Shown here: positions 1,141-51,600 of the stretch, piece by piece
Layout of the letters: the number at the start of each line of letters is the position of its first letter
Numbering within the stretch: position 1 is the first letter of the stretch
Assembly: GCA_965205075.1 (NCBI GenBank)
Contig: OZ242036.1
Location: 6,285,354 to 6,349,353 of the forward strand
Direction of reading: 5' to 3'
Length of the DNA: 64,000 nucleotides
DNA from: Candidatus Poribacteria bacterium
GTDB lineage: Bacteria; Poribacteria; WGA-4E; PCPOR2b
Notes under the pieces: model-generated
Seen by the model: the letters and a program-made list of their open reading frames with translations, nothing else
Told to the model about the DNA's origin: nothing
Databases searched by the model: none
Translations under genes and position numbers: made by a program

Positions 1141-1812
1141 TTATTCCTGTCGCTTTAAGGTCTGGACACCTGACGCAGTGCCGATAATGACCTGATCGGT
1201 GCGGTTAATGAAAAGTCCGTTGTCAACAACGCCGGGGAGATTATTGATCTCACTTTCAGTAGCAGCTGGATCGAGCATACCATCGAAGGTGCAGTCTAAG
1301 ATATAGTTGCCGTTGTCGCTGACAAAACCGGGACGCAAGGTTGCGCCTTGGCAGATCCGGTTAAGCGCGAGTTGGGTTGAACCCCAGCCAAATGGGACAA
1401 CCTCCACCGGTACGGGGAAATTGGAGCCGAGTTGTTCTACCCGCTTTCCTTCGTCAATGATGATGACCAATCGTTCGGAGGCGTGGGCGATGATTTTCTC
1501 TCGGACTAGCGCACCACCTGCACCTTTGATGAGATCGAGGGTGGGGTTGACTTCGTCTGCGCCATCAATGGTTAGATCAATCACAGGGTGTTGCCCAAGG
1601 GTTGAGAGCGATATACCTTGTTGCGTTGCAATTTCTTCCGTCTGTTTGGAGGTTGGAATACCAATAATATCAAGACCGCTCCGAACTTTTTCGCCGAGTT
1701 TTAGTAGCGCGTAGTAAATTGTTGAGCCTGTGCCGAGCCCGACAATCATGCCGGGTTCCACCGCCTCGACAGCCTGTTCTGCTGCGAGTTGTTTCAGTTT
1801 TTCTGTTTCCAT
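1141..1812 (-). CDS. rpiA: Ribose-5-phosphate isomerase A
   Basis: Motifs GLGTGST, DGADE, KGAGGALVREKI, SDNGNYILD. Confidence 0.97.
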   Translation of the reverse strand: METEKLKQLAAEQAVEAVEPGMIVGLGTGSTIYYALLKLGEKVRSGLDIIGIPTSKQTEEIATQQGISLSTLGQHPVIDLTIDGADEVNPTLDLIKGAGGALVREKIIAHASERLVIIIDEGKRVEQLGSNFPVPVEVVPFGWGSTQLALNRICQGATLRPGFVSDNGNYILDCTFDGMLDPAATESEINNLPGVVDNGLFINRTDQVIIGTASGVQTLKRQE

Positions 1813-1987
1813 ATTTTCTCCTGATAGGGATTCGTCCCGATAAATCGAGATTGACAGCCGTTCTCCTTGGATTGCTTACCCGTGCTAGGTTTCTAATTTT
1901 AACACCTCACGGAATGGTTTTCTACCTAAATTGTTGCGTCTCACGTATGACACAATACACATCACGACTATGCAAGGATAACCGCCA

Positions 1988-3721
1988 ATGAATCTATACC
2001 TCCGCCTACTGAGCTACGTTAAGCCGTATTGGAAAAGCACCGTTGTCTCACTCATAGCAATGTTGGTTGTGTCTGTTGGTAATCTTGTCCCAACATGGAT
2101 TGGAGGGAGGATTGTTATTGACGAGATAATCGTACAGCGGGATATCAGTCGCTTGCACTGGATTGCGCTCCTGCTGCTGGGCATCTATCTCGTGAAGAGC
2201 ATCGGGGTGATGTTGGCAGAATGGCTGTCCCACGAAATCGCTGAAAAGATTATCTACGACATGCGGACGCAGATTTATAGCCATTTGCAGAAACTGTCGT
2301 TCCGCTTTCACAAGGACAGCACTACCGGCGACCTGATGTCACGCGTGGTGAATGACATTGATGCGATGCGAGATATGCTTGCTCACACCATACACATCTT
2401 CACCGTGCAGGCATTGACCTTTATTGGGATTGCTATCATACTGTGCGGCATGAACCTGAAAATGGCGATCTTGACCCTTGTCCCAATCCTGATTTTGGGA
2501 CCGCTGATTGTCCACTTTGGTATAAAGCTGCGCCTCATTTCCCGCGATGTACGTGCGGAGCTTGCAGAGGTCAATGCCCGTTTGCAAGATAATCTTTCGG
2601 GAATCTTCGAGATTCAAGCCTTTGCCCGCGAACCTTATGAGGAGAAGCGGTTCATTGCCCGATGTGCCGCTTACCGCAACTCAATCATCCGAGGGGTACG
2701 CCTGTGGGCGCGACTCAATCCCGCCGTGCAGTTTTTGCTTGGCGCGAGTTACACAGCGATTCTGTGGTACGGCGGTTCGCAGATTATCACCGGCTCAAGC
2801 GATATGACCGTTGGGCAGCTGTTTGTTTTTCTCGGATTTCTGTGGCAGCTGTTTGTGCCGATTCAGATGGCAAGCCACGAAAATGAACGGTTGCAGAAAG
2901 CGCTCGCCGCCGGCGAACGGATGATGGAGCTTTTAGACACCGCACCTGAAATTAAAGACCTCCCGAATGCTTGGACAGGAAAGGTTAAAGGTGAACTTTT
3001 GTTTGAAGATGTTTCGTTCAGGTACACGGACGAGGATGTTCTGACAGATGTGAACCTCAAAATCCGACAGGGGGAGACCATCGCTTTTGTCGGTCCGAGC
3101 GGTGTTGGCAAAACCACGTTAGTCGGTCTTGTGCCGAGATTCTACGATGTAACCGGCGGACAGGTGAAGGTTGATGGTGTCAGTGTGCGGGATTGGCAAA
3201 TGCAGGCGTTGCGGCGTCAGATTGGGCTTGTGCCACAAGAGACGTTCCTGTTTAACGGAACAGTCGGAGAGAATATCGCCTACGGCAAACTAAACGTGAC
3301 ACAATCCGAAATTGAAATGGCAGCGAAATCCGCCAATATCTACGACTTCATCGCTGGGCTACCAGAGCGTTTCGATACCATTGTTGGGGAACGTGGCATG
3401 CGCCTCTCCGGTGGGCAGAAGCAACGGATCTCGATTGCACGTGCTATCCTGAAAGATCCGCCCGTCCTCATCCTTGATGAAGCGACCTCCTCTGTCGATA
3501 CGGAATCAGAACAACTCATCCAGCAGAGTTTGGTAAATCTACTGCACGGACGTACCACGCTGATTATCGCTCACCGACTTGCGACCATCAGATTTGCAGA
3601 TCGAATTGCTGTGTTGGATGACAATCGAATTGTCGAACTTGGCACACACGTCGAGCTGCTTTCGCAAGATGGACTATACGCACGGCTTTACAACGCGCAG
3701 TTTGGGGACAAGGGCTCGTAG
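1988..3721 (+). CDS. ABC exporter, fused TMD-NBD (MsbA/MdlB-like)
   Basis: N-terminal TM domain; Walker A GPSGVGKT; signature LSGGQKQR; Walker B ILDEATS; IAHRL. Confidence 0.93.
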   Translation: MNLYLRLLSYVKPYWKSTVVSLIAMLVVSVGNLVPTWIGGRIVIDEIIVQRDISRLHWIALLLLGIYLVKSIGVMLAEWLSHEIAEKIIYDMRTQIYSHLQKLSFRFHKDSTTGDLMSRVVNDIDAMRDMLAHTIHIFTVQALTFIGIAIILCGMNLKMAILTLVPILILGPLIVHFGIKLRLISRDVRAELAEVNARLQDNLSGIFEIQAFAREPYEEKRFIARCAAYRNSIIRGVRLWARLNPAVQFLLGASYTAILWYGGSQIITGSSDMTVGQLFVFLGFLWQLFVPIQMASHENERLQKALAAGERMMELLDTAPEIKDLPNAWTGKVKGELLFEDVSFRYTDEDVLTDVNLKIRQGETIAFVGPSGVGKTTLVGLVPRFYDVTGGQVKVDGVSVRDWQMQALRRQIGLVPQETFLFNGTVGENIAYGKLNVTQSEIEMAAKSANIYDFIAGLPERFDTIVGERGMRLSGGQKQRISIARAILKDPPVLILDEATSSVDTESEQLIQQSLVNLLHGRTTLIIAHRLATIRFADRIAVLDDNRIVELGTHVELLSQDGLYARLYNAQFGDKGS

Positions 3722-14531: not shown

Positions 14532-15569
14532 TTATTCAACCTGCCCTTCCGGTGAAAACACCTTAAAATCGCAGATGGCGTGCCGAAAAACGACGATTTT
14601 TGATTCGTTTTCTAAAATCATCTTAATCTCGTAGCTACTCACCCAATCCACCAATCCACGAAAAGCTTCTCCTTCTAGCATTGTGACTTGGATCATGTGC
14701 CGAGCCCGTCGCGCTTGAACAATAGCTCGCGTATTGATGCTATAGCGTTTTTTTCGTTGTATTATGGGCTTTAGGTTCTGTTCCTTAATTTCCCCGTTAT
14801 AGCGGAGAATCGACTGTATATCCGCAGCATCCTCCGCTTTGTAACAGTATTTGACATCGGTTTTCGGTAGTTCTTGTCTTTCTGTTTCGCCCCCGATAGA
14901 ATCGATTCCGTTCCGATCCCGTTCCGAGGACCCCGATGAATCGGAGGAATCCCGATTTATCGGGAGATTCGGAGCAACTTGTAAAACGAAGTCGTATTTG
15001 GTGAACCCAGTAACCGTCGCAGATAGCAGTGTATGATTATACAATCCAAAAAACATGGGCGTTTGAAGACGTATCTGCTTCTGTATGTAGAGATCGCCAA
15101 AGGTTGGCTGTTCATCAGGTGAGGAGGCTGGTTCTGGTTTGGGAGTGTGCAGATGAGAAGATTTCCGATCTGGGGAACTATCAATCAATTCAGACGTTGC
15201 TGTTTTAACTCTTGGAGTGGAGAAAGCAGCGGGCGTGGGGCGGATAGGACTTTCAGATGAAGCAAACGCCCCCTCCTCAGAATTATCTCTTGACTGCTGA
15301 GGTGGGGCATAGTCGCGAGGTATCACTGCCTTACCTTGTCTCAATCGCTTCTGTTCAAGCGGGGTAAGCAGGACCTTCACATTCTGGGCGACGGGACCTC
15401 TATCGCCTACAGCTACCTCGTATCTAACATACTGCCCTACCTGGATTTCGTCGTATCCATCCTGAATCGCAGAGATATGCAGAAAAACATCTCCTTCACC
15501 GGTGTCTTGAGCGATGAATCCATACCCTTTGTCTGAGTTATAATATTTGACTCGTCCCGTTGGCATCAT
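14532..15569 (-). CDS. Cold-shock domain protein fused to two Hfq/Sm-like domains
   Basis: CSD with RNP1 KGYGFI and RNP2 VFLHIS; S/P-rich linker; C-terminal VTMLEGEAFRG...KIVVFRHAI resembles Hfq; a second, degenerate Sm-like copy precedes it. Confidence 0.75.
   Translation of the reverse strand: MMPTGRVKYYNSDKGYGFIAQDTGEGDVFLHISAIQDGYDEIQVGQYVRYEVAVGDRGPVAQNVKVLLTPLEQKRLRQGKAVIPRDYAPPQQSRDNSEEGAFASSESPIRPTPAAFSTPRVKTATSELIDSSPDRKSSHLHTPKPEPASSPDEQPTFGDLYIQKQIRLQTPMFFGLYNHTLLSATVTGFTKYDFVLQVAPNLPINRDSSDSSGSSERDRNGIDSIGGETERQELPKTDVKYCYKAEDAADIQSILRYNGEIKEQNLKPIIQRKKRYSINTRAIVQARRARHMIQVTMLEGEAFRGLVDWVSSYEIKMILENESKIVVFRHAICDFKVFSPEGQVE
14890..14981 (-). repeat. In-frame palindromic micro-element (expanded copy) inside CSD-Hfq gene
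   Basis: Shares ends CARGTTGCTCCGAAT...ATCGGGGG with copies in mfd and lptD; contains nested CCGATnnATCGG palindromes. Confidence 0.6.
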
Positions 15570-34453: not shown

Positions 34454-37400
34454 TCATGCGGGTGTTGTGAGTGCTTTTCGCAGAAATCGTCCTGTGTGCG
34501 ATTCCTCTGTAGCCATGACCTCTTCTGGTGTTCCCATAGTGATGACCTTTCCACCTTCAGCCCCACCTTCGGGACCTAGGTCAATGATCCAATCGGCGGA
34601 TTTGATTACGTCCATGTTATGTTCAATGATGACGATTGTGTTGCCTTTGTCCACTAAGCGGTTGAGCACCGTCAGCAGCTTCTGTACATCATCGAAATGC
34701 AGGCCTGTCGTCGGCTCATCCATGATATAGATGGTTTTACCGGTACTTCGCTTTGAGAGTTCACGCGCCAGCTTGACACGTTGGGACTCACCGCCAGAGA
34801 GCGTTGTTGCCGCCTGACCGAGTTCGATGTAATCCAGACCAACGTCGTACAACATCTGTAGCGGTCTTTGGATAGTCGGTACGCTTTGGAAATGCTCTAA
34901 CGCTTCCTGCACAGTCATCGCTAGAATATCAGCGATGTTTTTGCCCTTGTAGTAGATTTGCAACGTTTCGTGGTTGTAGCCGGTGCCGCCGCATGTTTCA
35001 CATTTTACCCATACATCCGCTAGAAAGTGCATCTCGACTTTATTGAAGCCGTGCCCACGACATGTCTCGCACTGCCCTGTCTTTTGATTAAAGCTGAATC
35101 GACGGGAATCGAAACCGTGGACCTTGGCGTCCGGCAGGTCAGCGAAGAGATAGCGGATCTTGGTGAAGAGGTCGGTGTAGGTGGCAGGATTCGATCGTGG
35201 GGTGTCCCCAATTGGCTGCTGATCGATGTTAATCACTTTGTCAAGGCAGTCCAACCCATACATCGATCGATACTCTCCCGCCCGCATCCGGGTTCGGTTC
35301 AGATTAGAAACGAGAACAGGATACAAGGTTTCCTCAATCAACGAGCTCTTTCCTGAACCGGACACCCCGGTTACGCATGTCAGGGTGCCCAACGGGATCT
35401 CGACATCAATATTTTGCAAGTTATTGGTTCGGACACCTATCATCTCAAGCAACTCCCCTTTGCCTTGGCGTCTTTGCGGCGGGACGTCGATCTTGAGTTT
35501 TCCTGTGAGGTATCCACCCGTCAGCGACTGTTCACTTTGCTGGATTTCAGTCGGCGAACCGGCGGCGACAATCTCACCGCCAAACTTCCCTGCGCGAGGA
35601 CCAAAATCGAGTATATGATCCGATGCCAACATGGTTTCCAAGTCATGTTCAACGACTAGGACGCTGTTGCCAAGATCTCGAAGTCCTTTCAATGCGTTCA
35701 AGAGTCGTTCCTGATCTCGCTGATGCAATCCGATACTCGGTTCATCAAGGATATACGTCACCCCAGTGAGACCGCTGCCGAGTTGGCTTGCCAGACGGAT
35801 GCGCTGCATCTCTCCACCTGAGAGACTGGGTGCGGGTCGATCTAGCGTCAGATAATGCAGTCCAATATCGACGAGGAATCGGAGTCGTTGTTGGATTTCT
35901 TTGAGCAGTGTTCCACCGATCTCCATCTGATGTTTCAGGAGATCAAGGTGTTCAAAGAAGTCGGCGGTCCTTCCAATCGGCATCGCTGTTAGCGCGGCGA
36001 TGGTTTCCCCGCCCAACGTTACACCTCTCGCTAGGGGTTGGATTCGTGTGCCTTCACACTCCTGACAAGTATACAACCGATGCCCGATTGTCCCAATACC
36101 TTCGCAGGCTGGGCATTGACCGATAGAACTGTTGAATGAGAAGTGACGCGGTGTCAGTTCAGGGAAACTCAAACCGCACGGGACGCAAGCGAAGTGCTCG
36201 CTGAAAACGTGATGTGTAATTTCCGATCTTCTGCCCGTTCGCTTCCCTTCATTTATCACTCCCACCGCTACGGTGCCACCGCTCTGCTGCGTTGCCGTTT
36301 CAACAGCTTCTGTCAGGCGTCCCCGTTCGTCGGGTTCGAGAGCGAGGCGATCAACGACAATTTTGACATCGTGTCGGATACTCTTTCCAATCTTCGGTGC
36401 CCGATCAATCGGGTGAATCTCCCCGTCAATTTCGACGCGAGCGTAGCCATCACGCTGTAAACGCTGGAAAGCATCGGGATAATCCTCATTAGGTCGCAGC
36501 ACTAAAGGGGACAAGACGTAAAGCCGAGCTCCATCTGCCAATGCCACAATTTTATCAACGATTTGCTGTACGGATTGAACGCTGATTTCCGACCCGCATT
36601 GCGGGCAGTGAGCAGTTCCGACTCGTGCATAAAGTACACGCAGATAGTCGTAAATTTCTGTGACTGTCCCGACCGTAGACCGTGGGTTCTTACTCGGTGC
36701 CTTCTGCTCAATCGCGATTGCCGGCGAGAGTCCTTCAATCTTTTCCACCTTAGGTTTTTCTAACTGTCCTAAAAACTGCCGTGCATATGCTGAAAGGGAT
36801 TCGACGTAGCGGCGTTGTCCTTCTGCATAGATTGTGTCCAATGCCAGCGACGATTTTCCAGAACCGCTCACACCGGTGAATGTTGTGAACTTCCGATGGG
36901 GAATATCTACATTGATGTGCTTCAGATTGTGCTCATGCGCGCCATGCACAGAGATATATTCCCCCTCATTATTGTTGGTCAATTCATAAGAGGCTGTTGA
37001 TTCCTGTAGAATGTGCGGGGTACTGTGTGTTGCGTACTGCGTATTATCAATTGAAGAACCTTCCAATCCTCTCGGTGCTAGTGCTGATTGCAAAGCTATC
37101 CCCGTATACGATTCCTCAACGGCTGCTACCTCCTCCGGTGTTCCTGTTGCAACGACATAGCCACCTTCTTCACCACCCTCGGGACCGAGATCAATAAGAT
37201 AGTCCGCTGTTTTTACTACCTCCAAGTTGTGCTCAATGACGATAACGGTATTGCCCATGTTGACAAGTTGGTGCAACACCTCTAGGAGTTTTTTCACATC
37301 GTCGAAGTGCAACCCGGTTGTAGGCTCGTCGAGGATATAAAGAGTTTTGCCTGTGCTACGTTTAGCAAGCTCCCGCGCCAGTTTAATCCGTTGCGCCTCG

Positions 37401-39964
37401 CCTCCAGAGAGCGTCGGTGCTGGTTGCCCCAGCTTTATGTAATCCAAACCGACATCGTGTAGGGTTTGCAAAATCTTTGCAATTTTCGGAACGTTTGCAA
37501 AGTGTTCTAACGCTTCTTGCACGTCCATGTTGAGCACATCGGAAATATTCGCTCCTCGGTATTCGACCTGTAGCGTTTCGTCGTTGTACCGTTTTCCCTG
37601 ACAAACATTGCATTTTACCCAGACATCAGCGATAAAGTGCATTTCAATCCGCTTTGAGCCGTTGCCTTCACAGGCTTCGCATCTACCACCCTTGACATTG
37701 AAACTGAACCGTCCCGGCTTATAACCGCGCAGTTTAGCCTCAGTCATCTCAGCGTAAAGCGCGCGAATCTGATCAAACACTTTGGTGTATGTGGCAGGAT
37801 TCGATCTGGGAGTGCGACCAATTGGTGACTGATCGATATCAATCACTTTATCGATGACTTCGTCAATTGGAGATGAGGATGTACCTTGTGTCTGATCGTT
37901 TGTGGATTTTTCCTCTGTAGTGAACCCCCGTATGAGATCATATTCTCCCGGCTGCGCATGTGCCTTCATCAGATCGCGGGCAAGTGCTTCGTATAGAATA
38001 TCGTTGATGAGTGAACTTTTGCCGGACCCACTTACACCTGTTACGCAGGTAAAAACTCCGAGCGGGATTTGTACATCGATATCTTTGAGGTTGTTGTGAC
38101 GTGCGCCACAGACCTCGATCCATTGATTGCCGGTTGGGCGGCGTTCGGTAGGAATTTCGATCTGTTGTTCCCCACGGAGATATTGTGCCGTTAGGGAGGT
38201 TGAATCCTTGGCAATCTCTTGCGGTGTGCCGATTGCCGCGATCTCACCGCCTTTGATTCCCGGTCCCGGTCCGAAGTCAACGATCATATCTCCCGCCCAC
38301 ATTGTATCTTCATCATGTTCGACCACGATTACGGTGTTGCCTTGGTCTCGGAGATGCTTGAGCGTCGTGAGGAGATGTTGATTATCGCGCGGGTGCAAGC
38401 CAATACTCGGCTCGTCGAGAACGTAAACTACCCCTCGCAAGCCTGCTCCGATTTGGCTGGCTAACCGAATCCGTTGGGACTCTCCACCGGAAAGTGTGGG
38501 TGCGGTTCGATCTAAAGTGATGTAGTGCAACCCAACATTCATCAAGAACCAAAGGCGTCCCTGAATCTCTTTCAGCAAATCAGTCGCAATGAACGCCTCA
38601 CGCTCCGGTAGTTGAAGTTTTTCAAAGAACCTAAAACAATCACCGACTGCCATTGTAACGACATCAAGGATGGATTTTTCGTCGATTGTCACAGCTTTCA
38701 CTTCTGGCTTGAGTCGTGTCCCGTTGCAATCTGGGCATGTACCGGAAACCATGTATTTTCCGTAGTAACGTTTCACAAGTTCTGAGGTTGCTTGGAAATA
38801 CTTCCTTTCTTCAGGCGGAATCACACCCTCAAATGCGGCTTCGTACTTGTAGCGGCGATTGCGGCGGGAGCGATAGACGAAAGGAATCTGCTCTTTTCCA
38901 GTACCATAAAGGATAGCGTGTTGATGCTCCTCACCCAACTGCTCCCACGGTGTATCGAGACTAAAGCCGAAGTGCGCGGCTAAGCTCTCGGCGTGATGTC
39001 GCGTCTGCAACGTACCTAGCTGCCCCCAAAAGACAATCGCCCCTTCTCGAATCGATTGCGTTGGATCAGGAACAACCATATCGGGGTCCATCTTTGTTAG
39101 TGTTCCAATCCCTTTACAGGTCGAGCACATCCCCGCGGGACTGTTGAAGGAGAAATTTCGCGGGGCAGGGGGTTCATAGCTGATGTTGCAGTGCACACAG
39201 GTGTAATCTACCCCGAATAGGAGATCGCCCGCTTCCGGCTCTCCTTTGACGATGCTCACAATCAGACGACCTTCTCCCATGCGCAGCGCGGTTTCAACCG
39301 TTTCGGCAACACGGCTGCGAATATCGGGTTTGATAACGATACGGTCAACGACGATTTCAATGTTATGTCGCTGATTGCGGTCAAGTTGAATTTCGGCGGG
39401 CAGGTCGTAGATCTGTCCATCAATTCGTGCCCGGACAAACCCCGCCTTGAGCGCGTCCTCAAGGTGCTCACGATACTCTCCACGGCGCCCACTGACAATT
39501 GGGGCAAGGATTACGATGCGGGTCTGCGATGGTAGGTTGACGATTTGGTCAATAATTGCTTCTGTGGTTTGGGCACCCACCGGTGCGCCACACTCTAGGC
39601 AGTGCGGCGTCCCCACACGCGCAAATAGGACGCGCAGATAGTCGTAGATCTCTGTAATCGTTGCGACCGTTGAACGTGGGTTATTCCCGCCTGACTTCTG
39701 GTCAATCGAGATGGATGGGGAAAGTCCACCGATGAAATCAACGTCGGGTTTTTCCAGTTGTCCGAGGAATTGGCGGGCGTAGGCGGAAAGGGATTCGATG
39801 TAGCGGCGTTGACCTTCAGCGTAGACTGTATCGAATGCCAGCGATGATTTCCCGGAGCCGCTGACACCGGTGAAAACGATGAGGTTATCTTTGGGGAGTT
39901 TGAGATCGATGTTTCTGAGATTATGTTCGCGTGCGCCGCGGATATCAATGAATTCTTCCGGCAT
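34454..39964 (-). CDS. uvrA: Excinuclease ABC subunit A, tandem-duplicated (double-length) form
   Basis: Two UvrA modules, four GVSGSGKS Walker A and four LSGGE motifs, Zn fingers. Start MPEEF has an AAGGA RBS (alternative ATG at 40012). Confidence 0.95.
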   Translation of the reverse strand: MPEEFIDIRGAREHNLRNIDLKLPKDNLIVFTGVSGSGKSSLAFDTVYAEGQRRYIESLSAYARQFLGQLEKPDVDFIGGLSPSISIDQKSGGNNPRSTVATITEIYDYLRVLFARVGTPHCLECGAPVGAQTTEAIIDQIVNLPSQTRIVILAPIVSGRRGEYREHLEDALKAGFVRARIDGQIYDLPAEIQLDRNQRHNIEIVVDRIVIKPDIRSRVAETVETALRMGEGRLIVSIVKGEPEAGDLLFGVDYTCVHCNISYEPPAPRNFSFNSPAGMCSTCKGIGTLTKMDPDMVVPDPTQSIREGAIVFWGQLGTLQTRHHAESLAAHFGFSLDTPWEQLGEEHQHAILYGTGKEQIPFVYRSRRNRRYKYEAAFEGVIPPEERKYFQATSELVKRYYGKYMVSGTCPDCNGTRLKPEVKAVTIDEKSILDVVTMAVGDCFRFFEKLQLPEREAFIATDLLKEIQGRLWFLMNVGLHYITLDRTAPTLSGGESQRIRLASQIGAGLRGVVYVLDEPSIGLHPRDNQHLLTTLKHLRDQGNTVIVVEHDEDTMWAGDMIVDFGPGPGIKGGEIAAIGTPQEIAKDSTSLTAQYLRGEQQIEIPTERRPTGNQWIEVCGARHNNLKDIDVQIPLGVFTCVTGVSGSGKSSLINDILYEALARDLMKAHAQPGEYDLIRGFTTEEKSTNDQTQGTSSSPIDEVIDKVIDIDQSPIGRTPRSNPATYTKVFDQIRALYAEMTEAKLRGYKPGRFSFNVKGGRCEACEGNGSKRIEMHFIADVWVKCNVCQGKRYNDETLQVEYRGANISDVLNMDVQEALEHFANVPKIAKILQTLHDVGLDYIKLGQPAPTLSGGEAQRIKLARELAKRSTGKTLYILDEPTTGLHFDDVKKLLEVLHQLVNMGNTVIVIEHNLEVVKTADYLIDLGPEGGEEGGYVVATGTPEEVAAVEESYTGIALQSALAPRGLEGSSIDNTQYATHSTPHILQESTASYELTNNNEGEYISVHGAHEHNLKHINVDIPHRKFTTFTGVSGSGKSSLALDTIYAEGQRRYVESLSAYARQFLGQLEKPKVEKIEGLSPAIAIEQKAPSKNPRSTVGTVTEIYDYLRVLYARVGTAHCPQCGSEISVQSVQQIVDKIVALADGARLYVLSPLVLRPNEDYPDAFQRLQRDGYARVEIDGEIHPIDRAPKIGKSIRHDVKIVVDRLALEPDERGRLTEAVETATQQSGGTVAVGVINEGKRTGRRSEITHHVFSEHFACVPCGLSFPELTPRHFSFNSSIGQCPACEGIGTIGHRLYTCQECEGTRIQPLARGVTLGGETIAALTAMPIGRTADFFEHLDLLKHQMEIGGTLLKEIQQRLRFLVDIGLHYLTLDRPAPSLSGGEMQRIRLASQLGSGLTGVTYILDEPSIGLHQRDQERLLNALKGLRDLGNSVLVVEHDLETMLASDHILDFGPRAGKFGGEIVAAGSPTEIQQSEQSLTGGYLTGKLKIDVPPQRRQGKGELLEMIGVRTNNLQNIDVEIPLGTLTCVTGVSGSGKSSLIEETLYPVLVSNLNRTRMRAGEYRSMYGLDCLDKVINIDQQPIGDTPRSNPATYTDLFTKIRYLFADLPDAKVHGFDSRRFSFNQKTGQCETCRGHGFNKVEMHFLADVWVKCETCGGTGYNHETLQIYYKGKNIADILAMTVQEALEHFQSVPTIQRPLQMLYDVGLDYIELGQAATTLSGGESQRVKLARELSKRSTGKTIYIMDEPTTGLHFDDVQKLLTVLNRLVDKGNTIVIIEHNMDVIKSADWIIDLGPEGGAEGGKVITMGTPEEVMATEESHTGRFLRKALTTPA

Positions 39965-39996
39965 AGATTTTCCTTTGGCTGGCGATCTTTCCGTAA

Positions 39997-40230
39997 TTAC
40001 AGACGATTCCATTCATCTAACGAGATTCTATATCCTAATATATTCTCAACTTGTCTCAACAATAAGCGCAGTTGCGACACCGAATATTCTCGGTTATTTG
40101 GGATTGTCAAGTGATGATTTTCATAAGGCATAAAATCGTGTCGTGTACCATGCTGTAGGTTGCCAAATCCGAGTCTCTTTAATTTACGAATAAACAGCCG
40201 CCGCTTACAAGGTCGCCATCTTTGAGCCAT
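39997..40230 (-). CDS. hicA: HicA-family toxin
   Basis: Basic 77-aa protein with KLKRLGF...GTRH..M......TIP pattern. Confidence 0.8.
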   Translation of the reverse strand: MAQRWRPCKRRLFIRKLKRLGFGNLQHGTRHDFMPYENHHLTIPNNREYSVSQLRLLLRQVENILGYRISLDEWNRL

Positions 40231-40984: not shown

Positions 40985-43900
40985 TTAGAAGTAAGATCGT
41001 CCAAGTGAGTTTCCGACACCGAAGGCGTCGTAAGGTACTCCAGCTGGCAAGGTACGGAAGCCCCATGTATCCGTTGTGGCGTCATAGCCAACCCCGACTG
41101 AAGCAGCGGGTTCTGCAATCAGATTAATCTGAAAGGTGAAGTCTTGTCGCACATTATCGTAGGGGGGTTCCCGCTTAATCCCGATGCGATGCCATCTAAT
41201 CGTCATGTTCCAATTATGCAAGTTGCGTCGTAGCGTTACACTCTGCGAGTAGAACTGTTTTTCGATCCAGTCGTAATTAACACTAAGATTCAATTCAAAC
41301 AATCGATTTGGACGAAATCGAAAACTGCCCGTGAGACTTCGAGAGGCGCGTTGCGTTCTTTTTGTAAAGGCGTTTCCCAACGTTATATTCCATAAGTCGC
41401 GGCGATAACTGACGTTGGACCGGAAGCCAACCTGTTTGAATCGCTTTCCATCGAGGCTCGATTCATTGGGGTCAACTGTAGATCTAAACGTGATATTCAG
41501 GTTTCGGCTCGCTAGCGGAACTATTGTCATTCTACTTTCAATCGGTACATATCGACGTTCACCCAACGCCTCAAATTTGGTAAAATCCGCCGCTATTCGT
41601 GTATAAAACTGAAGCACGCGGAGCGCGGATCTGCTGCCTCGTGTTTTAACTTCAATACTGGTATCGAAGTTATAGGCGAGGTTCTTTCTTTCAAAGAAGT
41701 AGACACTGGGACCAAAAGGGTAAAGTTGGGGAGCATCTTCTCTTTCGACGGGCGGTGCGTAATCAAATGTGACTCTTGAGTTGATTTGGTGGCGCATCCG
41801 ACGGGCTCCCGGAATGTAACTGATGTCATAAATCCGAAATAGCAGATTGCTGGCAGACAACCGTGTGCTGTATATCCCGCGGAAAATGTTTGGGTTTCCT
41901 TCTCGGTCTTTGTCATGCCAGATGAGGTTTGTGTCGAGATCCGCGTCGAATCGCAATTCTCGATTCGGAATTATTTGCAGCACCGTCTGTTTACGGAGAT
42001 CAAAACCGAGATCCATAGTTTGCAAGTAGACATTGTCTTCGTCTCGAAACCGTTCGCGGAAAAAGTTACCGAGATTTACGTCTAAATCAAAACTGGTGCT
42101 CTCAAGCGTTGGAAAAGCAAACATCGAAAGAATAGGGAGATCGGTGTTCAGCGCATCAGCAACTTTGGTGAGTCTAGAATTGATAGTTTCGAAAACAGGC
42201 AGCCTGTCTAAACGCATGCGTGAGAGCGAGAGTTCGAGTGCTGGTAACTTTTGCAAGTTTGTTGTTCCTTCACCGGTGAGGCTTAATGTATGATTAACTT
42301 GTAGTCGTCCCAAGAACTCTCCGATTGTCTTGCTCGAATATCTTAAGTTTCCCTCCTCGTCCCTATCTTCAGCATCCAGTGCAGAATAGGAGGTTCCCCA
42401 TGTAAGCACACCAAAGGAGTTAACCGTAGATTCCTCGATTCCAAACCCCTCTTCTTCAAAATGCTTTGCTCGCCACGCCACGCGTCCCACAAAACCCACA
42501 GGCCGTCGTTGCCTCGCTCGGTTGTCCCATGGGGTGTAGAAAGTGTGCCGGTGCCCCCACCGCATATTCCATCGCCTTCCAGTTTTGAACGGCCTTCGGC
42601 GATCGAAAGAAAACTCATCGTTGGTATAGAAGTAAAGGTCTCCCCTATAAGTACGCCTTTTATCGATTTTAATCAGACGATATCCTTTACCGGTCCTGAT
42701 TACCCCGGTATGCTCACCGCTATAGAGTCGTTGGGCTTGTGTGTAGAGTACGGTCGGCATCTCCCATCGCCCGCGGTAATCGTATTTTTGGTAGACCTGC
42801 CCCTTCTCTGCGTCTGCTTCTTCCGATGGATTTGCTGTCCCATCGTCCTCAACGATATCGGGATTCGGAGGAACTTGTGTATCATTCTCTTCTGCTCCTA
42901 TATTGCTATTCCCGTCCCCCGTTTCCTCGTGCCCGTTTATCTCTTTTAGTTGTTCAATTTCACTCTCTTCTGTCGTTGCAGCTTTCCCAAATTCGGCTTC
43001 CATTACCGCCCACTCCGCTTCAAATTGACGTGCAATTTCTTCAAAGGTTGGGGTCAGTTCCTTTTCGATTAATTCAAGGACATAGGCACCTTGGTCAGTA
43101 TATATGGGCCGAGTTACTGCTCCGGGGGCTTCTAGTCGGGTTACAGGGTGTTTCCAACGTCGATCCATTTCATTTAACAGAAATCCTGTGCCTTCATTAG
43201 CTTCAGAAAGGTCCACTCCCTCATATTGCTCTGCTAATTCTTCGAGAACCTCTCCTGCCTCTGCACGTTCGTGAATTTCCTGAGCAGTCGTCCGGATTGC
43301 GCTCTTGGTCTCCTCGCTTGGTTCTATCGCTACGTCTATTCGACGAATCTGGAGTTCTTGCTGACCATATACATCGAGTACACGGTCAACCTTTAGAATA
43401 TGAAAACCGGATTCCGTTCTCAGAATCGGCGTAACTTCGCCCGGTTGCAGTTGAAAAACCGCCTCTTCGAGGATTGGATCTAGCCGAAGTTCATCTTCCT
43501 CATCGCGCTCTCCACGTACCAGAAAACCTATATCGCCGCCCTGATAGCGCGTGTCCTGATCGGTCGAGTCAGCTTGTGCAATCGCTGCAAAGTCTGCGTC
43601 CGGTTCCTGCAGTCGGGCATGGATATCTTCCACCTTTTCACGAGCAGCGGTGATATCTTCTTCAGAGATCTGATATTCTAGGAAGAGTTGCCGCAGCTTA
43701 TACCGGTCATACTCGCCCTCCAACCGATCCGCTAACTCCTGTGCTTTTTCCTCTAGTTTCGTCCGCTCACTTGGCGTTACATCAGGAGGTATGGGCACAA
43801 TAATTTCTTGGAACTTCACATCGTTTACCCGGTATTTTCCGTCGGCACCGAGCCCACCGCCTCGACGGGCAGAGTGGTCAAACAGCAGTGCACCGTCATA

Positions 43901-44953
43901 TCGAAATCGGCGTGCAAGCGGCAAAATTACGCTGAGGAATACCCCCTGATGGCTACTTGTTCCGACTTTGACGATTACCTTGGCGACTTTGTCTTCTTGG
44001 CGCAGATCGCGACGGTAGGCGGGAAAATAGAAGAGGGGAACACCGCCAACTCTCAGCACAATATTCGTGGCAATCAACTCTTTATTTATCCTGACGATAA
44101 TCTTCGATGCGCTGAAGTAATAATGGGGATGCTTGAGAGAGCATGTTGTCAAAGCCCCACCACGGATGTAGGATTCATCATCTTCGGTCTTAAAGATTTC
44201 AGTGCCGCGGTAGTACCATGGATCACTAAAACTGAATCCTTCACGAATGATCCCTTTTTTTGTTTCAATGTTATAAAGGAGTTCGTTCGCATAGGTTTCT
44301 TCCTTTCCGACGAGCAGATGCACGTTTCCCGCTGCCCGCATTATATTTTCATCGAAATCCGCCCAGATATGGTCTGCATAGAGCACAACCTCGTCATATT
44401 TGATCAATCCGTTACCGTGAATCTGAATCGTGTTTCCGTGAAAGGTGAGATTGTCGCCTTTAGCAAGAAGGTCCCCTGGTTCAGGTAACATATTCTCTGG
44501 ATCGAGTTTTCGACTGACTTGAGTGGGTTCTTCAGGTGTAGGTTCTTCAGATGTGGGTGAATCTGTCGCTGGTGGGGTTTCTGACGTTTCTTCAGGAGGT
44601 TCTGTGGAGGACTCTCCATCGTTGGGGACTTCGGGAGCAGGCGAATCTTCAACTGGCGAAGTTTCTGATGACGCCTCAGCCTGTTCGTCCGAAGCCTGTT
44701 CCTCGGTCGTAGACACAGGGTCGGTTTGCGCGGCTAATTCGCCCATAGGCAAAATTAAGTTAAGCGTGAGAATCGTAAGGGATAGGACGTAAAATGTAAA
44801 ACGGGCTGCACAGGGAGCAAGACGTAAAACGTAAAGTCGGTCCCCCATAGAGCAATTAAGGAATCGGAAACAAGGAGGTTTGGACAACCGGGTAGTTGAT
44901 TTCTTCCCGTTGCCTGCTATTTTCTGCCATTTCTGTGTTTCCCTCCTTGCCAT
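40985..44953 (-). CDS. lptD: LPS-assembly protein LptD with inserted parvulin (PPIase) domains
   Basis: OstA/LptA jellyroll, TTC..PHY, VPLFYFP, barrel strands, C-terminal LRRNLHNW..FTFQINL. Insert carries DFAAIAQADSTD..GGDIG and RTESGFHILKV. Confidence 0.8.
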   Translation of the reverse strand: MARRETQKWQKIAGNGKKSTTRLSKPPCFRFLNCSMGDRLYVLRLAPCAARFTFYVLSLTILTLNLILPMGELAAQTDPVSTTEEQASDEQAEASSETSPVEDSPAPEVPNDGESSTEPPEETSETPPATDSPTSEEPTPEEPTQVSRKLDPENMLPEPGDLLAKGDNLTFHGNTIQIHGNGLIKYDEVVLYADHIWADFDENIMRAAGNVHLLVGKEETYANELLYNIETKKGIIREGFSFSDPWYYRGTEIFKTEDDESYIRGGALTTCSLKHPHYYFSASKIIVRINKELIATNIVLRVGGVPLFYFPAYRRDLRQEDKVAKVIVKVGTSSHQGVFLSVILPLARRFRYDGALLFDHSARRGGGLGADGKYRVNDVKFQEIIVPIPPDVTPSERTKLEEKAQELADRLEGEYDRYKLRQLFLEYQISEEDITAAREKVEDIHARLQEPDADFAAIAQADSTDQDTRYQGGDIGFLVRGERDEEDELRLDPILEEAVFQLQPGEVTPILRTESGFHILKVDRVLDVYGQQELQIRRIDVAIEPSEETKSAIRTTAQEIHERAEAGEVLEELAEQYEGVDLSEANEGTGFLLNEMDRRWKHPVTRLEAPGAVTRPIYTDQGAYVLELIEKELTPTFEEIARQFEAEWAVMEAEFGKAATTEESEIEQLKEINGHEETGDGNSNIGAEENDTQVPPNPDIVEDDGTANPSEEADAEKGQVYQKYDYRGRWEMPTVLYTQAQRLYSGEHTGVIRTGKGYRLIKIDKRRTYRGDLYFYTNDEFSFDRRRPFKTGRRWNMRWGHRHTFYTPWDNRARQRRPVGFVGRVAWRAKHFEEEGFGIEESTVNSFGVLTWGTSYSALDAEDRDEEGNLRYSSKTIGEFLGRLQVNHTLSLTGEGTTNLQKLPALELSLSRMRLDRLPVFETINSRLTKVADALNTDLPILSMFAFPTLESTSFDLDVNLGNFFRERFRDEDNVYLQTMDLGFDLRKQTVLQIIPNRELRFDADLDTNLIWHDKDREGNPNIFRGIYSTRLSASNLLFRIYDISYIPGARRMRHQINSRVTFDYAPPVEREDAPQLYPFGPSVYFFERKNLAYNFDTSIEVKTRGSRSALRVLQFYTRIAADFTKFEALGERRYVPIESRMTIVPLASRNLNITFRSTVDPNESSLDGKRFKQVGFRSNVSYRRDLWNITLGNAFTKRTQRASRSLTGSFRFRPNRLFELNLSVNYDWIEKQFYSQSVTLRRNLHNWNMTIRWHRIGIKREPPYDNVRQDFTFQINLIAEPAASVGVGYDATTDTWGFRTLPAGVPYDAFGVGNSLGRSYF

Positions 44954-47517: not shown

Positions 47518-48480
47518 CTACTGCTCCGATTTTTCATTTTCCGGATCTTCTTCCTCTTCGGGCATCACGGGTGGTGGGAGCAGTTCTGGATACGTTTTGA
47601 GTTTGCCCTCGACAGTAAGCACTTCCAACCATTCTAGGATACGCTTCCGCTTCATTTCACGTTTTAGGGGATACTCAAGTCGAGGTTTAACCTCTTCAAA
47701 GGTCTGTTGGCGTTCTGGCTGATGCTCTTCCTTTCGGAAAATCATGTAATAGATATCCTCTTCGACCTCCTGCTCAAAAACTTCTTCGGTCATTTCGCCA
47801 ACTTCCATTGCAAAAACCGTGTCTACAAATGCTTGGGCTCGTGCAGAAACGTCTCGAGCAAAGTAGCCGGTGTCACCGGGATCCCCCGGATTTGAACCAG
47901 GTCCTGTCAATAGGTCTTTTTCCGCAAGTTCTTTCACTGCATCAAAGATATCCTTGCCGGCTTGAATTTCCTCCAATGTTGTTTGTGCGAGTTCCTTATC
48001 CAACAGCGTGATGGAGGTTGCTCGCACTTTTTCCTCCTCCACATAGGTATCTTTATTTTCTTCGTAATACTGCCGAAGTGTTTCCTCGTTGATGATGATT
48101 TTTTCGTCAACCTCAACTTCGGTTAAGCGTTCAACCATCAGTTGATGCTTATAATCGTCCCCTTTTTTAAGGAACTCCTCATTTTTATCGAATCCTGCTT
48201 CAGCAGCTGCGAGGAGTATTAGTTTTTGGTTGATCAAATCTTCCAGAAATATGAGTTTACCCGCTTTGGACTGATAGCCTTTCTGTTTATGTGCCGATAA
48301 CTCTGCTATTTCCGCATTAAGTGTTGCGAGCGAAATTTCGTGTATGCCGTTCCATTCGTACCGAGCCACAATAATTTGGCTGTCATCCATTGGTCCGGCA
48401 ACATCTTGCGATTCCGATGAATCGGGACTACTCAAACCGATCGCCACAGTCACGACGAAAATTATCAATATTTTTTTCAT
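47518..48480 (-). CDS. PpiC/PrsA-type parvulin foldase (paralogue of neighbour)
   Basis: Signal peptide MKKILII, YYEENKD.Y.EEEKVRA, PGDTGYF, TFEEVK. Confidence 0.8.
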   Translation of the reverse strand: MKKILIIFVVTVAIGLSSPDSSESQDVAGPMDDSQIIVARYEWNGIHEISLATLNAEIAELSAHKQKGYQSKAGKLIFLEDLINQKLILLAAAEAGFDKNEEFLKKGDDYKHQLMVERLTEVEVDEKIIINEETLRQYYEENKDTYVEEEKVRATSITLLDKELAQTTLEEIQAGKDIFDAVKELAEKDLLTGPGSNPGDPGDTGYFARDVSARAQAFVDTVFAMEVGEMTEEVFEQEVEEDIYYMIFRKEEHQPERQQTFEEVKPRLEYPLKREMKRKRILEWLEVLTVEGKLKTYPELLPPPVMPEEEEDPENEKSEQ

Positions 48481-48609
48481 TGTGTATATCGTTCCTTTCT
48501 GTAAGTGGATTGCAAAGACACCGTCTTCGCAGTTAAGGGTGGATTCATATTGAAAAGGTACGTATGCAAATACGTATGCTTCACAAGCACCGTTAATAGA
48601 CATCACATT

Positions 48610-51600
48610 TTACATTAATTTCCCCAAGATATGCTTGAGCTCAAGCAAGAGTGCTTTTCCTTCCAATCCTTTCAAGCGGATCGTCATGCGTGCAGGGGGC
48701 GTAATCGAGATTCGCCGGTCCTGTTCAATCAGTCGAATCAGTTTATGGGGATCAAGGCTTGTTTTCGCTTCATCAAATGTGATTTTGATGCTTTCCTCGC
48801 CTGCGGCGATTCCATCAACCCCAAGCTGTTGGCTGAGTTGTTTTAAGTCGGCGATTTCGAGGAGCATCTCAACCGGTTCGGGGATTTTTCCATACCGGTC
48901 GACCATCTCCTCTTCAAGTTCTTTCCGATCTACTACCGTTTCTAGGGCAGCGATCTTTTTATAAAGTGTAACCTTCTGACGGCTGTCGGGGACATACTCA
49001 TCAGGCAGATAGGCTTCAATGGGAAGGTTAATCCGGGTTTTGACCGTTTCTACGATCTCCTCACCTTTGAGTTTTTGTACCGCTTCCTCAAGGAGTTCGC
49101 AGTACATGTCGTAACCCACGGCGATGATATGACCGTGCTGTTCTGAACCGAGGATATTGCCTGTTCCCCGAATTTCAAGATCGCGGAGGGCAATCTTAAA
49201 CCCGGAGCCGAGGTCAGTAAATTCTTCAATGACACGCAGGCGTTTTTGGGCACCTTCTGTAATTGCCCATCCTTGTGGGTAGAACAGATAGCCGTAAGCC
49301 TGATATTGATCGCGACCGACTCGTCCGCGTAACTGGTAAAGTTGGGCTAACCCAAATGCGTCTGCACGATTGATCAGAATCGTGTTGACGGTTGGAATAT
49401 CCACGCCGGACTCAATAATCATGGTACAAACCAAAACGTCATATTTGTGGTTGATGAATTCCATCATCACTTTTTCGAGTTGACGTTCGGGCATTTGCCC
49501 GTGTGCCATACAGACTCTAGCGTGTGGTACGAGATCTTGGATTGTGGCAGCAATGCTTGCGATACTCTGGACACGGTTGTGAACAAAAAAGATCTGTCCG
49601 CCCCGTTCCATTTCTCGCAAGATCGCATCTCGAACCACGTCGGGATTATACTCCATGACATAAGTTTCAATTGGCAGGCGATTTTCCGGGGGCGTATTGA
49701 TTACGCTGAAGTCGCGGATGCCGACGAGGGACATATGAAGTGTACGCGGAATCGGTGTTGCTGTCAAGGTTAATACGTCAACCGTCTGCTTCATCTGTTT
49801 AATCTTTTCTTTGTGCTTTACGCCGAAACGATGTTCTTCGTCAACTACGAGCAAGCCGAGTTCCCGGAACTTAATATTTTTTGAGAGCAGGGCGTGGGTT
49901 CCGATAACAATATCGACTGTGCCATTTGCCAGTCCCTCCACAACTTTTTTCGCCTCTTTATCTGTTCGGAAGCGATTCAGCATTTCTACCTGAACGGGAA
50001 AGGGAGCAAAACGCTGCTGGAATGTATTAAAGTGTTGCAGCGTAAGAATTGTGGTTGGAGCAAGCAGGGCGACCTGTTTTCCTGCCATCACCGATTTGAA
50101 CGCGGCACGGAGTGCGACTTCGGTCTTTCCGTATCCGACATCTCCGCAAATTAGTCGATCCATAGGACGAAGGCGTTCCATGTCCCGTTTGACCTCTTCG
50201 ATTGCCTTTTGCTGATCCGGGGTTTCTTCATAAGGGAACAGTACCTCAAACTCTTTCTGCCAAGGAGTATCTGTTGAGAAGGCATAACCCTCTCGGGATT
50301 CACGGATCGCATACAATTCCAGCAATTCCTCCGCCATCTGCTCTATGGAGGCTTTGGCTTTGGCTTTAACCCGTTCCCATGACGTTCCACCGATTTTGTC
50401 TAGACGTATCCGGCTCTCCTCTTGTCCACCAATATACTTCTGCACAAGATCAATTTGATAGGTCGGAACATACAACCGACCTGCGTCGGCATAGTCTAGC
50501 GCGAGGAAGTCCTGCGGTTTCCCATCAATGTCGAGGCGACGAATACCTGCGTAGCGACCGATTCCGTGTGAGACATGCACCACATAATCCTTTTCCTTGA
50601 GGTCAATTAGACTTAGGATAGGAGTTCCTTCCTTAAAGGAGGTCTTGCGGTGCCGACGATGCTCGCGTCCAAACAACTCATCCTCAGACAGTGTGATGAG
50701 CTTAAGGGTTTCATTGATAAATCCCTCGCTGATGCTGCCAATGTTCACCGCTGTCTGGGTTGCAGGTAAATCTCTATCTGCCAAGATATTGTGTAGCCGA
50801 TCTGCGCTCTTCGGATTATCACAGAAGAAGTTGACGAAATAGCCCTCGTCAGTCCACCCCTTGATCTGATCCATAATCATCCGATAATTGCTGCGTGGCA
50901 GCCCGAGCGGACGCATACCGAAAGGAATCTCCTCAACCGGGTCCTCTGTATTGAGTGCTGGCGGAGTCAACGACGTGCGAACGAAGGGATACGCCTGCAA
51001 AGCGGATATTACCCCTTCAAACGGCACAAATGTCTCATCGGGTGACACCATAAACTGATCAAACGCTAGTTTTCTTTCATAAAGATCTTTCGTATTTTCG
51101 ATAAGTTGAGTCGCCTCACGTGCCATCCACGCTGGCTCAATCATGAGAACGATCGTCTGGGAGGATAGATAATCCATGAGGGTACTAGTCTCTTCATATA
51201 GCATGGGAAGTAAGGCTTCTAGTCCCTCCGGATTTCTTTCTGTTTCGAGACGGTGCGTAATCTCGTTGACTGCGTTTCGATACTTAGGCGATTCGTTGTT
51301 GTGAATCAGTGTTTCCGCGCGGGTTTTCCACAGATCGAGGGTTTTGGGGGACAGGATAATTTCTCGAACTGGACACAGTGTTATTGCTTCCGGCTCGTCA
51401 TCAATTCCATCGGTAACAGAGCGTTGTGAAGCCGGGTCAAACAACCGAATAGCGTCGATTTCGTCGCCGAAGAACTCAATCCGGATGGGTGCATCGGTGG
51501 TCAACGGGTAAACGTCCAGAATGTCACCACGACGGGCTAATTCGCCCTTGACTTCTACGAGATCTACGCGCTGATAACCGTTGTGCACCAGTTGTTCAAC

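Follow-up and report, generated by a model that had tools for sequence, protein, structure and literature searches.

Among described repeats, the small dispersed repeats (SDRs) of the Nostocaceae appear to be the closest in size and nesting to the element reported here, a hairpin repeat of 26 or 27 nt that occurs in a 64,000-nt stretch of Candidatus Poribacteria DNA (the window; assembly GCA_965205075.1, contig OZ242036.1, forward-strand positions 6,285,354 to 6,349,353) and throughout the genome from which it comes. The host is a sponge symbiont. SDR1-8 were reportedly described by Elhai et al. 2008 as units of 21-27 nt with a predicted hairpin. They are said to nest in themselves and in other repeats, their presence or absence between relatives reportedly served as evidence of mobility, and an RNA intermediate is said to have been proposed for these cyanobacterial repeats. 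The poribacterial element resembles them in size (26-27 nt versus 21-27 nt), in its hairpin and in its dispersal, a likeness that concerns the reported description of the SDRs. Among the cyanobacteria examined, SDR-like repeats were not found outside the Nostocaceae, according to the accessible part of PMC5861425; our host is a poribacterium without PsbA and thus lies outside this range. Heptamer repeats and the likeness to the SDRs had at first suggested a cyanobacterium, an idea dropped because the genome has no photosystem reaction-centre gene (Photo_RC). A further difference is our focus on genic copies that are in frame and encode a fixed peptide.

Translated repeats resembling repetitive extragenic palindromic (REP) sequences are already known, and the phenomenon itself is not new. 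The accessible part of Di Nocera et al. 2013 (PMC3733652) describes small palindromic repeats marked by GTAG or CGTC, which are mostly extragenic and in some cases lie inside open reading frames (ORFs) as extra residues. Many of these intragenic REPs are located in replication and repair genes (uvrA, uvrB, UvrD/REP helicase, recBCD), some lie inside other palindromes, and over half of the intragenic inserts are dimers or groups encoding 20-30 residues. The poribacterial element likewise resides in repair genes (mfd and a gene for an AddA/UvrD-like helicase). It differs in its long conserved tail and its nine-residue coding unit, and we regard it as a distinct variant of known repeats because it has no GTAG/CGTC tag, occurs as a singlet and shows evidence on trees of exact, repeated gain or loss, which the accessible part of PMC3733652 does not report.

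According to Bertels & Rainey 2011 (PMC3116915), hairpin repeats are probably mobilised in trans by a Y1 transposase that is present as a single copy. In the accessible part of that paper, excision events were found in population reads, REPINs insert into or beside other REPINs, and the mobile unit is an inverted doublet, singlets being held immobile. In contrast, the unit described here is a 26-27-nt singlet with clean presence and absence. Insertion sequences (ISs) of the IS200/IS605 family possess subterminal hairpins, insert 3′ of a short word without duplication, excise seamlessly and use single-stranded substrates, with an orientation relative to the lagging-strand template. The members IS608 and ISDra2 and hairpin-ended derivatives of the family, as covered in the accessible part of PMC6006769, serve as the comparison. 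Our element is like them in its hairpin and in its insertion 3′ of a word without duplication, and it may share seamless loss, the reading favoured here; it differs in having no transposase gene, in carrying one hairpin instead of two distinct ends and in measuring about 1/50 of the length of an IS. The palindromic elements of Rickettsia, to which a first-pass annotation of the window had likened the repeat, are about 100-150 bp long. They are inserted into genes in frame, and the proteins are probably still functional (Ogata et al. 2000, via the accessible part of PMC3733652). This analogy holds for the outcome, a palindromic repeat inserted and translated in frame, and breaks down for size and family, since the Rickettsia elements are several-fold longer, belong to an unrelated lineage and have no sequence in common with ours. 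No paper on such an element in Poribacteria was among the matches listed in a search of titles and abstracts (supplements were outside its scope), and we do not claim that the element is unpublished.

The hairpin micro-element is one dispersed repeat with the consensus (G)TTGCTYTGAAT-CCCGAT-N2-3-ATCGGG(G). It is composed of an 11-12-nt single-stranded tail, (G)TTGCTYTGAAT, a 6-bp hairpin, CCCGAT/ATCGGG, whose loop of 2 or 3 nt accounts for the two unit lengths, and a terminal G. Folded as single-stranded DNA, it has a 12-nt free tail and a 6-bp stem (-5.2 kcal/mol, z -3.1), and in a few copies pairing of the stem is kept through changes on both arms, e.g. CCTGAT..ATCAGG at 389819 (read by eye). 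GTAG and CGTC are both absent from the consensus (G)TTGCTYTGAATCCCGAT-N2-3-ATCGGGG and from its complement. In size and abundance the element agrees with a REP (a 20-40-bp imperfect palindrome of high copy number, mostly extragenic). It does not correspond to a classical miniature inverted-repeat transposable element (70-300 bp long, with terminal inverted repeats and a duplicated target site), as it is 27 nt long and its junctions in mfd, hemA and a gene for a cold-shock domain (CSD)/Hfq-like protein lack a duplication.

In the window, CCGAT-NN-ATCGG occurs four times compared to 0.12 expected, a number reached in 0 of 100 shuffles. We extended the search to the whole genome (G000; 6.66 Mb, single contig, 99.95% complete). 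Here, the pattern given in the first-pass annotation matched 38 times at up to three mismatches and its reversed control never, and the bare hairpin CCCGAT-N2/3-ATCGGG was found 300 times (249+51) as against 0-3 times for three control palindromes. The over-representation postulated there is thus borne out, with most copies being intergenic. As the tail is present in only 39 of 600 oriented readings of the bare hairpin, the CCCGAT/ATCGGG hairpin is common to several families. Coding sequence is avoided: 51 of the 300 bare hairpins are inside a stop-to-stop ORF of at least 150 aa, compared with 85% of 3000 random positions. An nhmmer profile recovered 80 near-full tailed copies, 55 of them outside every ORF of at least 120 aa. 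Copies in either orientation were found between unrelated genes, within other repeats and within each other. Across the phylum, 30 of 176 Poribacteria genomes hold the element, while the control is found in none. All 20 genomes of the window's genus are positive with 25-117 copies each (46 in G000 by this phylum-wide pattern count), three sister genera have 10-49 copies, and a few further genomes contain stray single copies. Our overall figure for the genus is about 45-120 copies per genome. The element was found in 0 of 112 genomes of another family, f2, and a viral contig collection yielded 0 matches.

The flanks reveal where the element inserts. In 31 of 63 copies, the two 12-nt flanks, when joined, recur 3-128 more times in the genome (up to three mismatches). 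These joined flanks are empty versions of other repeat families, such as GGCGGGGCAAG^ATGCCCCGCC, GCCCCAG^AGGGGC, GGCACA^CTCCGTGTGCC (^ marks the junction) and the central spacer of GTAG REPINs. By our reading of these sequences, the insertion point seems to lie within the target's predicted hairpin loop or at its margin. Pairs of filled and empty repeats fix the bounds of the unit as TTGCTYTGAAT...ATCGGGG, the preceding purine being part of the target. Filled and empty sites differ by exactly the element, with an ambiguity of only 1 nt (G) and no target duplication. At 27 independent sites, the 5′ flank reads CARG: position -4 is C in 21 and position -3 is A in 23 cases, and positions -2 and -1 are a purine (R) and G, respectively, in 20 cases each, whereas the 3′ flank is weakly conserved. 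Insertion 3′ of a fixed word of 4-5 nt without target-site duplication is the pattern of IS200/IS605-type elements. The doublet arrangement of REPINs was not found: by eye, the list of 63 copies contains no pair in opposite orientation within 200 nt, and the indels in mfd, the CSD/Hfq-like gene and hemA are single 27-nt units. Like the SDRs, the element nests in other repeats (the 31 of 63 copies) and in its own kind or relatives, as in the CSD/Hfq-like gene.

Two features concern mfd:
48610-52125, minus strand: mfd, transcription-repair coupling factor of 1171 aa (Pfam DEAD, TRCF, UvrB_inter and CarD_TRCF_RID; Mfd matches in the PDB).
51724-51750, minus strand: 27-nt element GTTGCTTCAAATCCCGATGCAATCGGG within mfd, encoding VASNPDAIG, residues 126-134.

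The instance in mfd, reported earlier as lying in frame on the coding strand, is confirmed by comparison with orthologues. Nine added residues, VA(L/S)NPDAIG, are found in three of 29 orthologues that cover the site (G000, G004 and G001); the other 26 are empty and read ...LL(K/Q)^GDR.... At the DNA level, the filled form minus the empty form is exactly the 27-nt unit between TTG(A/C)AG and GGAGAC, the empty junction reading TTGAAG^GGAGAC. With moderate confidence, the structural model places the insert at a coil between a helix (110-128) and a strand (139-143); pLDDT is 64.9 and falls below 50 at 130-135. A comparison with PDB entries puts the nine residues where mycobacterial Mfd bears its own longer loop. 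In a tree built after removal of the insert, each filled genome groups beside an empty one (G000 with G013, G001 with G015, G004 with G002/G007). For the whole gene, the approximately unbiased (AU) test rejects a grouping of the three filled alleles as a clade (p 1.6e-127), implying at least three changes, and it does so likewise for flanks of 250 nt on each side (AU p 7.7e-11). Variable sites only 2-12 nt from the junction agree with the empty sister species, against the other filled alleles. Nevertheless, all three copies have the loop GCA; the only other copy with this loop in G000 is that of the helicase gene, and none of 53 intergenic copies has it.

A nested insert is present in the second gene:
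14532-15569, minus strand: gene for a CSD/Hfq-like protein of 345 aa (CSD E 5.9e-19; Pfam Hfq at 284-333, below cut-off).
14892-14978, minus strand: nested composite of 87 nt within this gene, reading VAPNLPINRDSSDSSGSSERDRNGIDSIG.

The composite begins with GTTGCTCCGAAT and finishes with ATCGGG. Its outer 27-nt element is interrupted by an inner block of 60 nt (14906-14965), which separates 14966-14978 from 14892-14905, following the outer unit's GAATC and preceding its CCGAT. Read on the other strand, this block proves to be a second-family element, with the tail CCGTTCCGAG-AAT and the same hairpin, and it encloses another small hairpin in turn. Among 16 orthologues, six are empty (TTACAA^GGG GAA), seven carry a single 27-nt unit and three are nested with inserts of 57-87 nt (30 nt added in G005, 60 nt in G000 and G011). 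The nested palindromes described earlier for this gene are thus one of three allelic states. Outside the genus, the 11 orthologues that can be aligned are without exception empty, and we therefore take the empty state to be ancestral. On the gene tree, the 16 tips require seven state changes, and a clade of nested alleles is rejected (p 1.1e-62). Sister pairs differ in state: the nested G011 groups with the single G008, and the single G004 with the empty G002. Every copy has the loop TCT or CCT. The codons directly after the insert agree with the species clade, while the nest occurs across clades. Contigs from RNA libraries of two studies span the whole insert without gaps, although such libraries may include DNA. 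Over the repeat (bins 14910-14971), other copies inflate the contig depth, which therefore carries no information on this locus. A contig of a close strain, also from an RNA library, has 18 extra nt inside the nest near 14961, which adds another in-frame allele at this hot spot.

The earlier placement of this insert in the loop between the Sm1 and Sm2 motifs of an Hfq domain had to be dropped. The protein has a cold-shock domain at its N-terminus, then a conserved middle domain of no recognised fold, which bears the insert, and finally a C-terminal Hfq-like domain whose profile matches the Hfq-like structure 2qtx (E 6e-4). The Pfam Hfq match is located downstream of the insert, and the middle domain is not detectably Sm/Hfq: a search of the PDB with its profile did not retrieve any Hfq (the best hit, at E 0.53, is unrelated), and hhalign against the C-terminal domain gave a probability of 0.1%. 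The full-length AlphaFold model has a mean pLDDT of 31.6 and is unusable. The architecture of CSD, middle and C-terminal Hfq-like domain is kept across Poribacteria families.

In other genes, the picture is similar. An exact 27-nt indel near the C-terminus of hemA is filled in 12 of 18 orthologues and empty in six, the AddA/UvrD-like helicase-nuclease carries a copy near its C-terminus in all 20 genomes of the genus, and folD has one copy at its 5′ edge. Without exception, the genic copies verified have the sense orientation, share one reading frame and belong to the 27-nt form with a 3-nt loop; they are apparently transcribed along with the host gene and read V-A-L-N-P-D-x-I-G, and other hosts have copies near gene ends. 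Intergenic copies have a 2-nt loop in 31 and a 3-nt loop in 22 of 53 cases. ORF copies have the 3-nt loop in eight of ten; of the two exceptions, one falls in a putative antisense ORF and the other is a wrongly scored portion of the nest. The peptide pattern [VIA][AGP][LSPQ][ND][PS]D.I[GE] matches nine ORF sites, three internal (mfd, helicase, hemA) and six at 5′ edges of ORF calls whose start sites are putative; the reversed pattern matches none. Frame 2 of the unit contains a TGA stop.

We consider it very likely that the repeat is a mobile micro-element whose in-frame copies are tolerated passengers. A mobile small repeat that writes peptide loops into proteins had been suggested in the first-pass annotation, and both the dispersal of the copies and the exact in-frame indels among orthologues support this view. 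Because the filled alleles do not form a clade yet have rare loop letters in common, the element, to judge by alignments and trees, has come or gone exactly and more than once. The nest of three levels that G000 and G011 share cannot be the product of two independent origins; consequently, some single or empty alleles derive from exact loss, or alleles moved between species. The alleles of the CSD/Hfq-like gene need losses, and in mfd the common rare loops favour loss, with recombination as another possible cause. As recombination occurs in the genus, seamless excision is favoured, not proven.

In mechanistic terms, the element is probably a non-autonomous single-strand hairpin transposon, perhaps moved by a Y1/HUH enzyme, and we are reasonably confident of this explanation as a whole. 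Single-strand cut-and-paste is suggested because the unit combines a hairpin with a tail, follows a fixed 5′ word without duplication, prefers hairpin loops and is likely lost seamlessly. A Y1 (HUH) transposase of the IS200/IS605-RAYT kind (RAYT, REP-associated tyrosine transposase) would excise and insert the element in trans as single-strand DNA. The predicted enzyme would recognise the hairpin and cleave 3′ of the flanking word, which would permit seamless insertion as well as seamless excision. Purifying selection would then let only frame-preserving copies in tolerant loops survive. The assignment to the Y1 class is tentative and in our estimate falls somewhat short of an even chance.

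G000 encodes seven Y1_Tnp genes. One of them is a RAYT-like gene of 145 aa at 5010254-5010688 (locus L122, G000:C1:5009000-5012000, 1255-1692). It is flanked by GTAG REPs with the identical CCCGAT hairpin, 271 nt upstream and 81 nt downstream. As in REPIN-RAYT systems, the genome thus has a RAYT next to a classic GTAG family, GTAGTTG-CCCGAT-NN-ATCGGG, with 105 copies; this family is separate from the tailed element, which does not flank the RAYT. In several flanks the GTAG repeat pairs with a GGCGAT..ATCGCC arm, giving a REPIN-like doublet. Another locus (L111, G000:C1:6601030-6604383, 1492-2021) contains an IS605-like pair, an IS200-type tnpA of 137 aa followed by the start of a putative tnpB-like ORF, and the hairpin TCCCGATTTATCGGGG is located about 110 nt upstream of this tnpA. 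Neither Y1 gene qualifies as a co-distributed mover.

Several observations weigh against the transposon reading. A RAYT orthologue is present in only nine of the 20 genomes of the genus and absent from the other 11, all of them carriers, and the IS200-type TnpA is found in eight of the 20 but in 56 of the 112 genomes of the element-free family f2. No full copy of the element adjoins any of the seven Y1 genes (nhmmer). In the closed 6.66-Mb genome, cumulative GC skew and ORF strand counts gave no clear two-replichore pattern and no usable origin or terminus as a reference for the orientation of copies. Signs of recombination are also evident: G000 has different partners in the mfd and CSD/Hfq-like gene trees, the empty hemA alleles (six of 18) share a linked downstream haplotype, AQYV..EMF, in two non-sister groups, and an inter-domain linker of a uvrA-like protein has two alleles, one with 12 aa more in total (G015, G018, G005 and G010), whose distribution departs from the mfd tree and indicates recombination between species. 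Patchiness may therefore in part reflect allele shuffling and not excision, and what the assembled sequences document is presence and absence, not present-day movement. Finally, in a foldase/Rotamase_2 gene (47518-48606, minus strand), the hairpin CCCGATTCATCGG(A) at 48413-48426 swaps in for 14 unrelated nt without change in length, which cut-and-paste leaves unexplained. Among the genomes of the genus, 11 have TGGCAGATTGTCCA at this site, six a CCCGATnnATCGGG-like hairpin, and three are not alignable. The hairpin directly follows a native GTAG word and is patchily distributed on the tree; its loops, TC, TT or CC depending on the clade, agree with those of the GTAG REP family. This palindrome had originally been grouped with the insertions; it is an equal-length replacement.

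These observations can be set against the alternatives. Ancient single insertions might have become patchy by homologous recombination or incomplete lineage sorting among co-resident Poribacteria, the element perhaps being long dead. The hemA haplotype, the conflicting partners of G000 and the uvrA linker alleles speak for this scenario, which we nevertheless regard as rather unlikely, given that the 250-nt flanks in mfd reject a filled clade, informative sites within 2-12 nt of the junction track the empty sister species, the codons behind the CSD/Hfq-like insert track the species clade while the nest crosses clades, and copy number ranges from 25 to 117 inside one genus. Gains alone, with a site-specific inserter striking the same CARG sites repeatedly, inserting three times in mfd and never excising, would supply the minimum of three changes on the mfd tree, and the clade-specific loops of the foldase hairpin resemble recurrent strikes at one place. 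This is unlikely in view of the GCA loop found in all three mfd copies but in none of the 53 intergenic copies of G000. Moreover, the 87-nt three-level nest of G000 and G011 is not buildable twice, so that the single alleles of their sisters point to loss or transfer.

A gene-conversion-like route, in which ectopic copies serve as templates for patch repair or template switching and no transposase takes part, would account for the foldase swap, an exchange of equal length that adjoins the native GTAG word. We find it doubtful as a general explanation, as the events in mfd, the CSD/Hfq-like gene and hemA are clean 27-nt additions with unchanged flanks and a 1-nt (G) ambiguity, and a conserved 5′ CARG combined with a weakly conserved 3′ flank is characteristic of a nuclease that reads one side. 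Mobility through transcription, reverse transcription and integration, akin to the intermediate proposed for the SDRs, would fit the sense orientation of all verified genic copies and the presence of the insert in RNA-library contigs. It is highly improbable, since no RVT_1 (PF00078) match for a reverse transcriptase exists in the 99.95%-complete single-contig genome, control genomes do match, and retro-copies do not excise, whereas the alleles of the CSD/Hfq-like gene need losses. Just as hard to accept is an immobile motif kept by selection as an operator, RNA signal or peptide. Hairpin and tail are strongly conserved across the genus, and the fixed copies in the AddA-like helicase and peptidyl-prolyl isomerase (PPIase) genes are old; however, copies lie in both orientations, between unrelated genes, nested in other repeats and in one another, their presence differs between sister species, and fixed genic copies decay. 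In line with this, an Rfam scan of eight copies with flanks revealed no family, only three chance-level matches (E 0.11-0.9) far under the gathering scores.

Returning to the single-strand transposon, a bolder version is conceivable, although we think it more prone to fail than to hold. The single 26-27-nt hairpin with its tail would then be a complete transposition substrate and among the smallest DNA transposons, carried in and out at CARG by a host Y1/HUH enzyme without a scar, so that loops (VALNPDxIG) would be switched in essential proteins such as Mfd and nests would be peeled layer by layer. If true, nine-residue loops would be switched on evolutionary and perhaps on population time scales. 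The repeat constitutes a natural experiment, with a 27-nt unit, exact junctions, a conserved target word and loop letters that act as a barcode of descent, and twenty related genomes offer empty, single and nested alleles at the same sites. It allows a test of whether single hairpins, beyond REPIN doublets and full ISs, can insert and excise seamlessly and which HUH enzyme is involved, and thus bears on the question of how REP-type repeats spread. The essential proteins Mfd, HemA and the AddA-like helicase tolerate a stereotyped insert of nine residues, which makes it an inexpensive probe for permissive loops. In annotation, the copies account for many small in-frame length differences among poribacterial orthologues.

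The remaining copies in the window are degenerate:
40985-44953, minus strand: gene for a PPIC-type PPIase protein of 1322 aa (Pfam PPIC rotamase domains).
42853-42874, minus strand: decayed copy GTTCCTCCGAATCCCGATATCG, reading VPPNPDI, in the acidic linker of this PPIC-rotamase protein.
1835-1859, minus strand: degenerate intergenic copy GGCTGTCAAT-CTCGAT-TT-ATCGGG-A, between the ORFs 1141-1812 (minus) and 1988-3721 (plus).

The first of these copies had been announced as a third, degenerate instance in lptD. The instance is real and better preserved at the same site in relatives, but the gene label does not hold for a protein with PPIC rotamase domains. The linker copy is present, variously decayed, in all 16 orthologues of the genus, the best preserved being GCTGCTTTGAATCCCGATAAAATCGGGG (locus L099); six orthologues from outside the genus are unalignable at the linker, and no empty site was seen among the PPIase genes. 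Judging from these alignments, the copies in the PPIase and AddA-like helicase genes are older and fixed. An intergenic palindrome noted earlier at about 1826-1852 corresponds to the copy at 1835-1859, which was read by eye against the consensus and falls below the nhmmer full-length filter.

The uvrA-like gene (34454-40012, minus strand) encodes a protein of 1852 aa with two UvrA-like halves. Its palindrome CCCGATTGATCGGG (36400-36413, minus strand) was considered as an insertion and rejected, because it consists of native HPIDRA codons and the region is of equal length in all 19 orthologues read. The perfect palindrome is present only in some genomes and arises via synonymous sites. At the 3′ end of hemC (locus L119, G000:C1:4560000-4564500, about 3236-3581), two element-like copies lie 319 nt apart with identical 40-nt flanks. 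They read in the other open frame, CYESRPDRG, and look like a local duplication.

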